NCBI GenBank assembly: GCA_028292545.1
Contig: JAQGMC010000001.1
Coordinates: forward strand, 1,408-65,407
DNA length: 64,000 nucleotides
Reading direction: 5' to 3'
From: Paucimonas sp.
Lineage (GTDB): Bacteria; Pseudomonadota; Gammaproteobacteria; Burkholderiales; Burkholderiaceae_D
The notes under the pieces are model-generated. The model ran no database searches, was not told the origin of the DNA, and worked only from the letters and a program-made list of their open reading frames with translations. The position numbers and the translations under genes are program-made. Shown here piece after piece: positions 21,518-35,697 of this stretch (the stretch's first letter is position 1; each line of letters opens with the position of its first letter).

Positions 21518-21545
21518 TGAACCGGCCTCCGGGGCGCGTTACAGA
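21518..21545 (+). promoter_or_regulatory. ECF-sigma (hrp-box-like) promoter of paralogue A1
   Basis: TGAACC-N15-TTACAGA, 45 nt before the ATG; same motif precedes all five paralogues. Confidence 0.65.
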
Positions 21546-21590
21546 TCGGGCTATTCCAACCAACGAGCGCCTACCGGGGCGCGCTTTACC

Positions 21591-24527
21591 ATGCCCAGCA
21601 TTGCCACCAGCTACTACTCCGCGGACTCAAAATTGGCTCCGCTGATCGACTTCCTTGCGCGTTGTTCGAATGCGGAATTTGGCCGCACAGGTACGCTGCT
21701 CTCCGTCGATCAGGCACTCCTGCTTAGGGATGCTTGCCAAATCCATGGCGTGAGATGCAGGTTTCCTTCCCAACTTGAATCCCGGGCGCCAAAAGACCAG
21801 GTCAAAGTTTCAATCAGCATCCTGGAGGTGACGCGCGTGGCGGCCTTGCTGCTGCCCAGTGCTTGCAGCGCGCTGGAACGGCATGCCGAACTGACCGGAT
21901 TGGCAAGCAAGGCTGCGCTTACGCCGTGGTATGCCTTGCCCCAGAAGCCGGCCGGCTTGATCAACTGGATGCCCGATTCTGACCTGGTGGCCCTTGAAGG
22001 CCGGCTGGCGTGCGACTTCGTACTCGCTAGCCAGCCTGGCAGTTCGCCCCTGTTCAGCATAGTCAGGGAACCGGAAGAAGCGGTCGGCTTGCTAAGGGAG
22101 CATCCCATGCGCTGCCTGGTGCAAGCCGGCACTGCGCAGTTCCTGCTGTGCGAGCGCAGCACCTGGACCGATGCCACGGCGAAGGCCCGGCACACCTTGC
22201 GTGAACATGCCGCCCTGTTGCTCCTGGTCGGGTTGCGGATGCTGGCGCTAGGTTGGTCACCACAGTTCGAGCTCACGCAAGTCACCAAATTGATGGGCCA
22301 CGAACCGGAGATGGCTGAATTGAGGTCAGCGCTCGACACGCTCTACAAGTCCTGCGTTGACCAGGAGACTTACCGGGCGCTGGTGCTTGACGGCCTTTCG
22401 CGTTTGAATGCCTGGTGCCAGCATCAGGGCGTGGGCGCAAGCGACAGCGATTCGCACGCTTATTACGAGGCGCTTCGCACAACCTGTCCCAACGCCACAA
22501 CGATGACGAGCGCGACAACCGCCACGACTTACACCACAACCCTGCCGGCGGCCTTTCCCATGCCAGCACCGGCGCCGGTCGCAGGCGGCGCTACCAGGAA
22601 ACGCAAGCGCATTAAAAATGTGGCGGTTGAAAAAGAGGCCGCCGTGCCTGGCGTGCCAACTCTTGCCCCGCCCACCACGAACGTCAAACGCTGGACCGAC
22701 TATGTGCCGCCAAATAAACGGGCCAGGCTCGATCCGCCTGCGGTGGCCGTGGTAGCCGTCACGCCACCCGGCAACCAGGACCAGCCTGGTGAGCCGGCCC
22801 AGGCGCCAGCCTTCGGCTCCGGACGCTGGTACCTCACGACTTGGCGGGAAGCAGACTCGCCTGGGTCCACTCGTCGCTGCGATGTCCCGCCTGCGGCCAG
22901 GCCGATACCGGTGGAGCCGACAGGCAAGAACCGCGGGACCGTGATTGCGCCGCAGGTGAGGCAAGCGCAATCCGCAACCGGGAACAACACCCGGGTCAAT
23001 GCGCTGGGCCCGGCTCAAAGTCCAGCGGTCGGGCCGGGCCCGGTTTACGTGGGCGCCGGCGCAGTTATACGAAAGGGTGTGAGGCTGGGCAATGGCGTGG
23101 TGCTTGGCGACGGCGTGACAATTTGCAGCGGCGCGCAAATAGGTGAGGGCGCGCATATCGGGCCAGGCGTGACCGTGCCGGCACATGTGCAGATTGCCGC
23201 CGGTGCGCATGTGAACCGCATTGTTGTCGGCCGTCACCCCCTGCTGCCGGGGACCGTATTGGGCGGCGATTTCGAGTGCGCCGGAGAGACCCGGTTCGCT
23301 TCTGGTTTCACGACGGAGGGCCGCTGTACCATCAACTGGCCCGGTCTGATTTCGAAGCACCTGGTTTTCACCCGCGATGCGGTGGTCGACATACTTGCCG
23401 GCGCAGACCAGCTGCCCCCCGGGACCCGGGTCGGCGGTAACCTCATGCTGTCTCCGGGATGCCAGGTGGCAGCCGGGGTCGGGTTCGGGAGCCAGGTGAT
23501 GATTGGGGAAAAAGTCGTTATTGGACCGGGCGCGTCGATCGGGGACAGTGTCGCGGTGAGGAAGAGCCTGCAGATTGGCGCCGGTGCAGTCGTCGCAAGC
23601 ATGCTTGTGGTGGTCAAGAATGTTCCGGCGATGGCAGTCGTCAGCGCGAGCGGAACAATGCTGAACGGCGTGAAACTGGATCAGCCGCTGGCCTATTTGA
23701 TGCCGAAGTTCAGCATCGACGGAAACGGCGAAATGGTGCTCGGTCCGAAAGCTGAGTGGCCAGCATTTCCACCGGAACTACTCGCCAGCCGCGCGCCGCA
23801 AACACAGGCCCCTGCGCCTGCCGCCGAACTACTCCCGGCGGCCGTTGTTGCAGCACAGGCTCCACCTGTGCCCAGCCAGCCGCTGCTCCGTCTTTACCCT
23901 GGTCCGCCGTCGCTGCCATCCCGGCACGCGGCGCCTGCTGTGCGGGCTTTGCTGGGCCAAAGTGCATCGCGTTCCGGGCCGCCGGGTCCCACATCGCAAT
24001 CGTTGGTCGGCCCGGGCACGTCCGGTTCCGAGCCCGAGCTACCCGCTGCGCCATCCTTGCTGGCCACAAGTACAGCGCCATCGTTGCCTGCTGCACCCTT
24101 GTCGCCGCTGTCATGGACCACCGCCACACCACTGGACTTGTTAGCGCACGTGAGCGCCAGCACCACTTCCACCGAGCCTATGCCCGTCGCCGCACCGGGC
24201 AGGCTGCAGGCCAGCCCGCGCTCGCCGGGGGTGGAGATCATCGAGGCACCCGTGTCGGCCCCGGCCCCGGTTGCCGCCCAGCTTGCCCACAGCGCAGGTG
24301 TGCTTGCTGCAGGCCGAGGGGCAGATCATCCTGGAAGCCCGTTGAACCTGTCGGACTTTGGCCGCGACCGGACCCGTATAAGGATTGTGGCGCCGCCGCA
24401 TCCCGCGCAGGGCACGCCCGGCACCGCGCCGCAACCGATGCGCACACCCGCTGCCGTGGGGGCGCAGTTACCTGCGGCCGGCGCTGCGCCGGGCGCGAAG
24501 CTGTCCATTTCCATGCTGCTCAACTAG
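21591..24527 (+). CDS. Paralogue A1 (978 aa): unknown N-domain + NLS-like motifs + left-handed beta-helix + Pro-rich tail; putative effector
   Basis: Hexapeptide repeats (VGAGAV-IRKGVR-LGNGVV-LGDGVT...); RKRKR; PPNKRARLD; C-terminal KLSISMLLN; homologous to four neighbours. Confidence 0.85.
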   Translation: MPSIATSYYSADSKLAPLIDFLARCSNAEFGRTGTLLSVDQALLLRDACQIHGVRCRFPSQLESRAPKDQVKVSISILEVTRVAALLLPSACSALERHAELTGLASKAALTPWYALPQKPAGLINWMPDSDLVALEGRLACDFVLASQPGSSPLFSIVREPEEAVGLLREHPMRCLVQAGTAQFLLCERSTWTDATAKARHTLREHAALLLLVGLRMLALGWSPQFELTQVTKLMGHEPEMAELRSALDTLYKSCVDQETYRALVLDGLSRLNAWCQHQGVGASDSDSHAYYEALRTTCPNATTMTSATTATTYTTTLPAAFPMPAPAPVAGGATRKRKRIKNVAVEKEAAVPGVPTLAPPTTNVKRWTDYVPPNKRARLDPPAVAVVAVTPPGNQDQPGEPAQAPAFGSGRWYLTTWREADSPGSTRRCDVPPAARPIPVEPTGKNRGTVIAPQVRQAQSATGNNTRVNALGPAQSPAVGPGPVYVGAGAVIRKGVRLGNGVVLGDGVTICSGAQIGEGAHIGPGVTVPAHVQIAAGAHVNRIVVGRHPLLPGTVLGGDFECAGETRFASGFTTEGRCTINWPGLISKHLVFTRDAVVDILAGADQLPPGTRVGGNLMLSPGCQVAAGVGFGSQVMIGEKVVIGPGASIGDSVAVRKSLQIGAGAVVASMLVVVKNVPAMAVVSASGTMLNGVKLDQPLAYLMPKFSIDGNGEMVLGPKAEWPAFPPELLASRAPQTQAPAPAAELLPAAVVAAQAPPVPSQPLLRLYPGPPSLPSRHAAPAVRALLGQSASRSGPPGPTSQSLVGPGTSGSEPELPAAPSLLATSTAPSLPAAPLSPLSWTTATPLDLLAHVSASTTSTEPMPVAAPGRLQASPRSPGVEIIEAPVSAPAPVAAQLAHSAGVLAAGRGADHPGSPLNLSDFGRDRTRIRIVAPPHPAQGTPGTAPQPMRTPAAVGAQLPAAGAAPGAKLSISMLLN

Positions 24528-24677
24528 CGCCATCCACTGCGGGCCCGGTCAGTTGCCCAACCAGGCGACACAGTCGGGCACTGCGAGCGCCGGCCCGCCG
24601 TGCCTTGCGGACTGGCCACCGAAACCCGGGCCTGGATCGAGCCGCCGGCGATGGCCCGGGTCACCGTTTCACCGGCG

Positions 24678-24705
24678 TGAACCGGTCACCAATTCCCGTT
24701 ACCAA
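24678..24705 (+). promoter_or_regulatory. Additional copy of the hrp-box-like promoter
   Basis: TGAACC-N15-TTACCAA, 45 nt before an ATG-CCG at 24751. Confidence 0.55.
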
Positions 24706-35448: not shown

Positions 35449-35595
35449 GGTTTTGGGAGTTTATACCGGAAACGCTTATGAATCATAGGTTTATCGTCGT
35501 TGCAGGGGCGGCTCCGCGGCCCTTCCGCCAGGAATAGCGGCGTCCCGTGGGCGGCCGGTCAATGCTGGCTTCCAACCGGCGCCGTGACGCTGCGC

Positions 35596-35640
35596 GCGGC
35601 GGATCTGTCACTGTTAATCAACAAGCCGCGATCGTCTTGA
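35596..35640 (+). pseudogene. 3'-end relic of an A-type paralogue (…DLSLLINKPRSS*)
   Basis: Matches the A2 C-terminus (SVSMLINKPHSS*) at DNA and protein level, at the same distance from the B-gene promoter. Confidence 0.6.
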
Positions 35641-35669
35641 GCAGGAGCGGAAACAAATCGCGGGCAGGC

Positions 35670-35697
35670 GGAACCCGGCATGGGGGTGCGTGACAAA
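35670..35697 (+). promoter_or_regulatory. ECF-sigma (hrp-box-like) promoter of paralogue B3
   Basis: GGAACC-N15-TGACAAA, 41 nt before the ATG. Confidence 0.65.

Follow-up and report, generated by a model that had tools for sequence, protein, structure and literature searches.

A probable ECF sigma factor promoter shared by five hexapeptide-repeat paralogues and the type III secretion operons of an uncultured soil Paucimonas

The question raised by this locus is what a short, repeated motif is doing in front of each of five large paralogous genes that stand in one array. The array lies in a stretch of 64,000 nucleotides from Paucimonas sp. (GenBank assembly GCA_028292545.1, contig JAQGMC010000001.1, here contig C88), called the window below. 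An earlier reading made from the letters alone, the sequence-only reading, had noticed the motif [GT]GAACC-N15-T[GT]ACNNA before the paralogues (A1, A2, B1, B2 and B3) and had likened it to the hrp box that drives effector genes of type III secretion systems (T3SS). Following the analyses described here, we consider it very probable that the boxes are real promoters, and that they are read by a sigma factor of the extracytoplasmic function (ECF) type whose gene lies inside a T3SS cluster on another contig (C11) of the same genome. The assembly was derived from soil metagenomes and comprises 3.27 Mb in 150 contigs, with 62% G+C and an estimated completeness of 81%.

The box in the window and across the genome

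All five boxes that had been claimed are present with the sequences given, and the distance of 40-45 nt to each paralogue was borne out by measurement to the ATG (Table 1). The count of five was not, since the pattern has six matches in the window, all of them on the plus strand, where 0.03 would be expected (the mean of 100 shuffles, none of which reached six). The -35 element of the paralogue boxes is GGAACC in three cases and TGAACC in two, and the spacer is 15 nt long in all six window boxes. It had also been proposed that the spacers are of constant length and of different sequence. Both points stood, but the spacers are not independent of each other, as 12 of 15 bases agree between B2 and B3 and 10 of 15 between A1 and A2; we ascribe this partial likeness within the A and B subfamilies to common ancestry. 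In an alignment of the six promoter regions, the upstream sequences could not be aligned apart from the box, the region of the ATG and a short GCGC palindrome. Amino-acid identity between the paralogues is only 34-54%, so the box has persisted while the sequence around it diverged.

Across the genome, the loose pattern was found 26 times with the N15 spacer and one to four times at each of the other spacings from N10 to N21, and the strict form GGAACC-N14-GTTACnnA was found 13 times at this spacing and at most once at any other. A position weight matrix (PWM) separated 20 strong sites (score of at least 20.9) from a tail of GGAACA, GGAACT and GGAATC variants. The consensus of these 20 sites is GGAACC-N14-GTTACnnA, and in their information profile only GGAACC and G-TTAC-nnA are informative. 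The flanks and the spacer carry no information, so the strong sites did not arise as copies of a repeat element. When an open reading frame (ORF) of at least 120 aa with its 5' end after the site was required, 14 of the 20 strong sites had such a 5' end downstream, compared with 13.7% of 4000 random positions. The classical hrp box, with its CCAC form, occurs only two or three times in the genome.

The genes following the sites point in one direction. Eight of the 20 strong sites are on contig C11, which carries the T3SS cluster described below. Other strong sites precede a Sel1-repeat protein, a 942-aa protein without a family and several small proteins. Of ten weaker sites that were checked, nine stand before ORFs of 391-931 aa without a Pfam family, several of which have N-termini rich in Ser, Thr and Pro, and the tenth stands before a 504-aa protein with a tryptophan 2,3-dioxygenase domain. 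Altogether the same box, at the same spacing, is found before about 15 unrelated genes. The sequence-only reading had suggested a genome scan with a PWM, and the matches do fall before T3SS operons and other orphan genes as it had supposed. It had named matches mainly before envelope-stress or iron-uptake genes as the outcome that would speak against it, and no gene of either kind follows any strong or checked weaker site. As a separate observation, the domains of the tryptophan-dioxygenase-domain protein and of the Sel1 protein are of a eukaryote-facing kind.

The type III secretion cluster and its sigma factor

Contig C11 carries the only FHIPEP gene of the genome, an SctV whose score exceeds the curated hrcV model cut-off; the other gene identities on this contig were taken from its Pfam annotation. 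Their positions on C11 place the boxes at the heads of the cluster operons (Table 1), including two divergent pairs and one tandem pair. The two Pfam-less proteins encoded after the box at C11:14372 are probable translocators.

Inside this cluster, between sctL and a unit encoding a CesT chaperone and a 595-aa protein, there is a gene for an ECF sigma factor, which NCBIfam labels as a generic ECF sigma. A search for an HrpL- or BtrS-like sigma factor had been recommended, and this gene appears to be the one sought. A tblastn search with the sigma against 72,556 plasmids returned only ten records, seven of them from Pantoea at 33-35% identity. The match on pPATH lies between sctW-sctV-sctN and genes for a PAS kinase, a response regulator and a sigma-54 activator (hrpX/Y/S-type), which is the classical position of hrpL. 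Searched against the genome, the Pantoea HrpL found the C11 sigma as its best match (E 6e-24), followed by an RpoE-like gene (8e-13); the two proteins are reciprocal best hits, with 38% identity across the whole core and a nearly identical helix in region 4.2. In a phylogenetic tree the T3SS-linked sigma factors grouped together with HrpL with a support of 87/91, and the other ECF sigma factors of the genome, which are RpoE-like, fell outside. The closest plasmid-borne relative of the C11 sigma is found in Azospirillum sp. B510, and no T3SS genes were found within 15 kb on either side of it.

These results suggest the following model. RNA polymerase carrying the C11 sigma would bind GGAACC as the -35 element and GTTAC or GTGAC-nnA as the -10 element, and transcription would start a few nucleotides after the box, leaving 5' leaders of about 30-40 nt. 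Once active, the sigma factor would switch on the operons of the secretion machine, the type IVb pilus operon and the dispersed orphan genes together, the five hexapeptide-repeat paralogues among them. To judge from the box-preceded genes, the regulon in this genome may comprise the T3SS operons, the pilus operon and roughly 15-25 orphan genes, most of them without a Pfam family.

Table 1. Positions of the boxes, paralogues and other features (window positions for contig C88; C11, C20 and C24 are other contigs of the assembly).
Feature	Location	Strand	Description
Box of A1	window 21518..21545	+	TGAACC-N15-TTACAGA; end 45 nt 5' of ATG; PWM score 21.3
Sixth (orphan) box	window 24678..24705	+	TGAACC-N15-TTACCAA; PWM score 22.1
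Box of B1	window 25227..25254	+	GGAACC-N15-TGACATA; end 41 nt 5' of ATG; PWM score 22.1
Box of A2	window 28038..28065	+	TGAACC-N15-TTACTGA; end 40 nt 5' of ATG; PWM score 21.5
Box of B2	window 30888..30915	+	GGAACC-N15-TGACATA; end 40 nt 5' of ATG; PWM score 22.1
Box of B3	window 35670..35697	+	GGAACC-N15-TGACAAA; end 41 nt 5' of ATG; PWM score 22.5
Leader palindromes	window ~21565-21580, 25273-25288, 28084-28098, 30934-30947, 35717-35731		approximate positions
Paralogue A1	window 21591-24527	+	978 aa; conserved N-terminal domain of ~290 aa, then hexapeptide repeats
Paralogue B1	window 25296-27809	+	837 aa
Paralogue A2	window 28106-30859	+	917 aa
Paralogue B2	window 30956-33589	+	877 aa
Paralogue B3	window 35739-38519	+	926 aa
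Box	C11:14345	-	before YscX-like, YscY, SctV, SctD, small protein, SctF needle, TPR-GT41 protein
Box	C11:14372	+	divergent from 14345; before two Pfam-less proteins, class II TPR chaperone, SctI, SctJ, SctK, SctL
Tandem boxes	C11:26104 and 26276	-	before CesT chaperone and 595-aa unknown protein
Box	C11:38376	-	before SctO-P-Q-R-S-T-U, CesT chaperone, SctC secretin, GNAT protein
Box	C11:51908	-	before embedded type IVb pilus operon
Box	C11:55953	-	before SctN ATPase operon
Box	C11:55983	+	divergent from 55953; before 521-aa gatekeeper (fused SctW with TyeA-like C-terminus), then CesT chaperone
ECF sigma gene	C11 ~21832-22518	-	Sigma70_r2 match at C11:22132-22329
TPR-GT41 protein	C11:6831-9215		794 aa; after needle gene
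GNAT protein	C11:27981-30137		718 aa; after secretin gene
Type IVb pilus operon	C11:38903-51890		
Trp-dioxygenase-domain orphan	C20:4573-6087		504 aa; domain behind N-terminal extension of ~200 aa; box-preceded
Sel1 orphan	C24:4952-6331		459 aa; eight Sel1 repeats; box-preceded
Plasmid-borne sigma relative	Azospirillum sp. B510 plasmid pAB510a 612159-612593		42% identity to C11 sigma

Several genes of the cluster are of interest in their own right. The pilus operon encodes a TcpQ-like protein, a secretin, PilO, a T2SSE ATPase and a T2SSF protein, and also a protein of 1642 aa with a shufflon N-terminal (PilV-like) region. The TPR protein with a GT41 (O-GlcNAc-transferase-like) domain has relatives in Noviherbaspirillum. 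The protein encoded after the secretin gene, with a GNAT acetyltransferase domain at its C-terminus, is kept in more than 20 related clusters.

Conservation in relatives and comparison with known systems

Orthologues of the C11 sigma with 64-79% identity are found in at least 20 genomes of Oxalobacteraceae, both isolates and metagenome-assembled genomes (MAGs), among them Lacisediminimonas, Noviherbaspirillum, Janthinobacterium and Herminiimonas, and always inside a syntenic T3SS cluster. The sigma and SctV occurred together in three of three genomes checked and were both absent in two of two. More distant relatives adjoin the secretin end of a T3SS cluster in Chitinimonas lacunae (60% identity) and, next to sctC, in Achromobacter sp. 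Root83 and Bordetella genomosp. 9 (46% identity each). The relative in Chitinimonas koreensis (44-47% identity) belongs to a differently arranged cluster, and it pairs with the Pantoea HrpL in the tree, which the C11 sigma does not.

Conservation of the boxes was settled by aligning orthologous intergenic regions and examining whole clusters; an exact-pattern scan of 43 sigma-centred loci of relatives gave three matches, most of these loci stopping short of the operon heads. In the orthologous divergent region of three Noviherbaspirillum genomes, a box [GT]GAAC[CT]-N15-GTTAC is kept on the translocator side with a wholly changed spacer, and on the other side TGAACA-N15-GCACAAA is found in two of the three. 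Noviherbaspirillum suwonense and an uncultured Noviherbaspirillum both have boxes before sctO (N14) and before the sctN operon (N15), and N. suwonense has further ones before the divergent partner of the sctN operon and before the translocator operon. The genome studied here, C. lacunae and Achromobacter all have a divergent pair of boxes with the translocator side to one hand and the gatekeeper/yscX side to the other; in the three Noviherbaspirillum genomes, one or both boxes of this pair are present. C. lacunae and Achromobacter each have another box in front of the sigma gene, at about 0.8 kb and 0.9 kb respectively. In C. koreensis there are six boxes of the form [GT]GAAC[CT]-N15-GTCACyCA (five GTCACTCA and one GTCACCCA), and in Bordetella genomosp. 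9 the -10 element takes the forms GCAC, TCAC and CCAC, compared with TTAC here. The boxes of the relatives are more degenerate than those of this genome. From these comparisons, the invariant of the family would be GGAAC[CT], a spacer of 14-16 nt and ..AC-nn-A, with the first two bases of the -10 element varying between lineages.

The motif heads T3SS operons, the cluster has a sigma gene of its own and the boxes are conserved across genera; these results support the connection with type III secretion that the sequence-only reading had put forward as an inference. The parallel with the HrpL hrp box (GGAACC-N15/16-CCACNNA in Pseudomonas syringae, Erwinia and Pantoea) stands in part: the -35 element, the 15-nt spacing and AC-nn-A are shared, but not the CCAC of the -10 element, in place of which we find GTTAC or GTGAC. 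The logic is also that of the HrpL systems, with the operons of the machine and dispersed effector genes under one ECF promoter. Hrp1 systems place the HrpL gene under sigma-54/HrpS control, whereas here the sequence upstream of the sigma gene contained one match to a sigma-54 promoter (TGGCAC-N5-TTGC) against 5.2 expected, which is not above chance. The content of the cluster likewise differs from Hrp1 in being of the Ysc/Bsc type (YscX/YscY, YscO). The published hrp box is GGAACC-N15-CCACTCAAT (PMC3487950), and hrp boxes have been predicted for a Hrp-type cluster in another member of the Oxalobacteraceae, Herbaspirillum (PMC3487950).

The closer comparison is with Bordetella. Here, as in Bordetella and Achromobacter, the gene of an ECF sigma factor lies within the T3SS cluster or next to it. 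BtrS (BrpL) is the HrpL-like sigma factor of Bordetella, and a BtrS-type regulon has BtrA, an anti-sigma factor that is secreted, as well as the BtrU/V/W partner switch. On C11, and in the genomes with the more distant sigma relatives, the operon-level gene order matches the Bordetella bsc locus in the blocks X-Y-V-D-E-F, translocators with class II chaperone and I-J-K-L, O-P-Q-R-S-T-U-chaperone-C, and a fused YopN/TyeA gatekeeper with a chaperone after it; the bsc order is that of Table 2 in PMC7498569. Because the gene order matches bsc, and because btrS (annotated brpL) adjoins bscC in Bordetella (PMC7498569), the C11 sigma is the positional equivalent of BtrS, a likeness that is based on this position and on the sigma of Bordetella genomosp. 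9. The BtrS-dependent groups of genes in B. bronchiseptica, bscN-to-bsp22 and bopN-to-orf2 (PMC7498569), are the two operons that diverge from the intergenic region orthologous to the one bearing the paired boxes. In Bordetella, transcription starts have been mapped at -68 for bteA and at -31 for btcA (PMC3053399). YscX and YscY occur in the Ysc family only (PMC7498569), and their presence argues against membership of Hrp1. There are also differences from Bordetella: the host is an uncultured soil member of the Oxalobacteraceae and not an animal pathogen, sctN and sctL are not neighbours, the type IVb pilus operon and the genes for the GNAT and GT41 proteins are extra, and a search for a BtrA-like gene, which did not extend to BtrU/V/W, found none. 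Taken together, the comparison of gene content and order supports a system of the Bordetella Bsc/BtrS type and not of the plant-pathogen Hrp1/HrpL type. No published consensus for BtrS promoters was found in the literature within reach.

Two observations were made on the sigma loci of relatives. Between the box and the sigma gene of C. lacunae and of Achromobacter sp. Root83 there is a gene for a conserved protein of about 190 aa (45% mutual identity); this protein may be the counterpart, in an autoregulated operon, of BtrA/BspR, an anti-sigma factor that is secreted. In about 20 loci (L034-L054) from freshwater MAGs of Oxalobacteraceae and Burkholderiaceae, only region 2 of the sigma gene is present. 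Among the loci where the flank was available, this remnant is joined directly to the last ~38 codons of sctV in about 14, with sctD and often sctF after it, as if a single deletion, common to one lineage, had destroyed most of the T3SS cluster. The organism labels of several of these MAGs, such as 'Bifidobacterium' or 'Bordetella parapertussis', are implausible.

The paralogues, other explanations and significance

All copies of the paralogue family in the assembly are within this one array. The large ORFs contain hexapeptide (left-handed beta-helix) repeats in their middle part in all five cases. The promoter alignment revealed a common ATGCC start context (ATGCCCAG in four paralogues, ATGCCACG in B3), according to which three of the genes start further in than their longest ORFs do. 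From Met1-Pro2 on, the N-terminal domain (about 290 aa) is conserved, with Cys25, Trp113, Trp126, Cys190 and Trp195 among its invariant residues. Its structure (B1 residues 1-290, window 25296-26165) was predicted confidently, with a predicted local distance difference test score (pLDDT) of 76 and a predicted template modelling score (pTM) of 0.72, and a Foldseek search of this model against the PDB gave no match at E <= 0.001. A likeness of residues 200-290 to four-helix bundles (VIA-align Z up to 9.2) was rejected as generic and within the noise for helical models. As modelled, the domain appears to have no recognisable fold and no convincing match among solved structures.

The family is rare outside this genome. 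The N-terminal domain was detected in two of 300 genomes of the same family, both T3SS-bearing Noviherbaspirillum, at 25-30% identity, and a search of three genomes from the window's own genus gave no match. The two most complete of these three have neither a sigma orthologue nor an SctV above the cut-off, and the third, which is only 83% complete, has both. N. suwonense has two homologues. Of the three Noviherbaspirillum homologues, two begin with ATGCCC and have, some 66 nt before this start, GGAACC- or GGAGCC-N14-TTACCnA; the box thus goes with the paralogue family across genera. Given their probable co-regulation with the T3SS, we infer that the five paralogues are candidate substrates of the T3SS, secreted or injected, and the box is the strongest evidence available that ties them to the secretion system.

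The array also holds some features beyond the genes and their boxes. The orphan box is followed 45 nt downstream by an ATGCC start context and then by a short ORF only, and tblastn detected no remnant of a paralogue in 24528-25295; this box is probably the relic 5' end of a lost paralogue copy. All five leaders contain a GCGC-N4-8-GCGC palindrome, whose 3' arm lies 8-15 nt before the ATG. No Shine-Dalgarno sequence is visible in the five leaders, and the GCGC stem shows no covariation across them.

A number of points weigh against the interpretation of the boxes as promoters of T3SS-associated genes read by the C11 sigma. The link between the sigma and the boxes is one of co-location, co-occurrence and analogy, and for RNA sequencing runs containing window positions 21001-31000 none are listed, only DNA runs from soil metagenomes. 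The sigma tree contains only 14 sequences and does not split the three T3SS subclades. There is no convincing box before the sigma gene itself, only an imperfect ATGACC-N16-TTACTGA at 11 nt before its ATG; it is possible that the gene is transcribed by read-through from the two boxes before the upstream chaperone/595-aa unit. A tblastn search with the BtrA-like protein of about 190 aa found nothing convincing in this genome, of which 81% is represented. The first two bases of the -10 element are TT or TG, where the HrpL hrp box has CC. In relatives conservation of the box is shown only at specific orthologous promoters, with spacings from N14 to N16, and counts of the strict pattern against a reversed control in five relatives were 6/8, 7/5, 5/4, 3/3 and 0/2; as there is no genome-wide enrichment in these five, so clean and large a regulon is particular to this genome. 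The N-terminus of the paralogues is also unusually conserved for an effector signal.

Even so, the other explanations fare much worse. The boxes might be read by a different ECF sigma factor, an RpoE-like one of the envelope-stress kind or one of general stress, with their position in the T3SS cluster a matter of coincidence or overlap. GGAAC-type -35 elements are indeed common to many ECF groups, and the genome has at least four other ECF-like sigma genes. However, promoters of the RpoE (GAACTT-N16-17-TCnnA) and EcfG types stand before stress or envelope genes, and the annotated genes after the strong sites encode T3SS, pilus, chaperone and repeat proteins, the rest being family-less and none of them an envelope-stress or iron-uptake gene. 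No site precedes the RpoE-like gene on contig C132, the distance from GGAAC to CGTT is 14 nt here and not the 16-17 nt of EcfG-type promoters (GGAAC-N16-17-CGTT), and the boxes track the T3SS cluster across genera. We therefore regard this explanation as very unlikely.

We think it just as improbable that the motif is the operator of a dimeric DNA-binding regulator, in the manner of the plant-inducible promoter (PIP) box or the tts box. GTTAC is one base away from the reverse complement of GGAAC, so that the motif could be seen as an imperfect inverted repeat, and in other T3SS families activator boxes are in use, for example the PIP box (group II systems, cited in PMC3487950). But the 20 strong sites all have the same polarity toward the downstream gene and the same asymmetry: the second arm has A instead of C, and nnA is confined to the 3' side. 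Divergent operons have two separate, opposed boxes instead of one shared symmetric site, and the layout is that of the HrpL hrp box, with an HrpL-related sigma in the cluster. Finally, we give almost no credence to the motif being a passive, functionless leftover of the duplications that made the array, for although spacers are still alike within subfamilies and the orphan box indicates that a box can persist without a gene, the proteins and upstream flanks have diverged as described, and the box recurs with the same specific spacing before unrelated genes and before distant homologues in another genus.

Reading by the sigma factor of the T3SS cluster is thus the explanation we favour. The co-regulation of a T3SS and its effectors by an ECF sigma factor is textbook biology; the kind of regulation is already known, and the result is in this sense solid but ordinary. 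What is new is the organism, the cargo and, in a Bsc-type system, a -10 element of the form TTAC/TGAC, for which the literature that was reached yielded no published consensus. For an uncultured soil member of the Oxalobacteraceae, the box provides a sequence handle that delimits the T3SS regulon. The same type of promoter is found at orthologous positions in the cultured N. suwonense, N. pedocola and C. lacunae and in Achromobacter, where it can be tested at the bench, and by comparison a consensus for the sigma family of Bordetella-type T3SS could be fixed.

Two further readings can be put together, and this joint proposal is one that we hold tentatively, being slightly more inclined to doubt it than to accept it. 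The first is that the motif represents an undescribed consensus of the whole BtrS-type clade, [GT]GAAC[CT]-N14-16-G[TC][TC]AC-nnA, in Chitinimonas, Achromobacter and the Oxalobacteraceae of soil and fresh water, and possibly in Bordetella. In that case it would be a general handle for defining sets of secreted proteins. The second is that the host-directed regulon of this genome is unusually large, with 25-30 promoters that include those of the five-gene family, the tryptophan-dioxygenase-domain protein and the type IVb pilus. Perhaps this regulon, if real at that size, would be aimed at a eukaryotic host such as a protist or a fungus.

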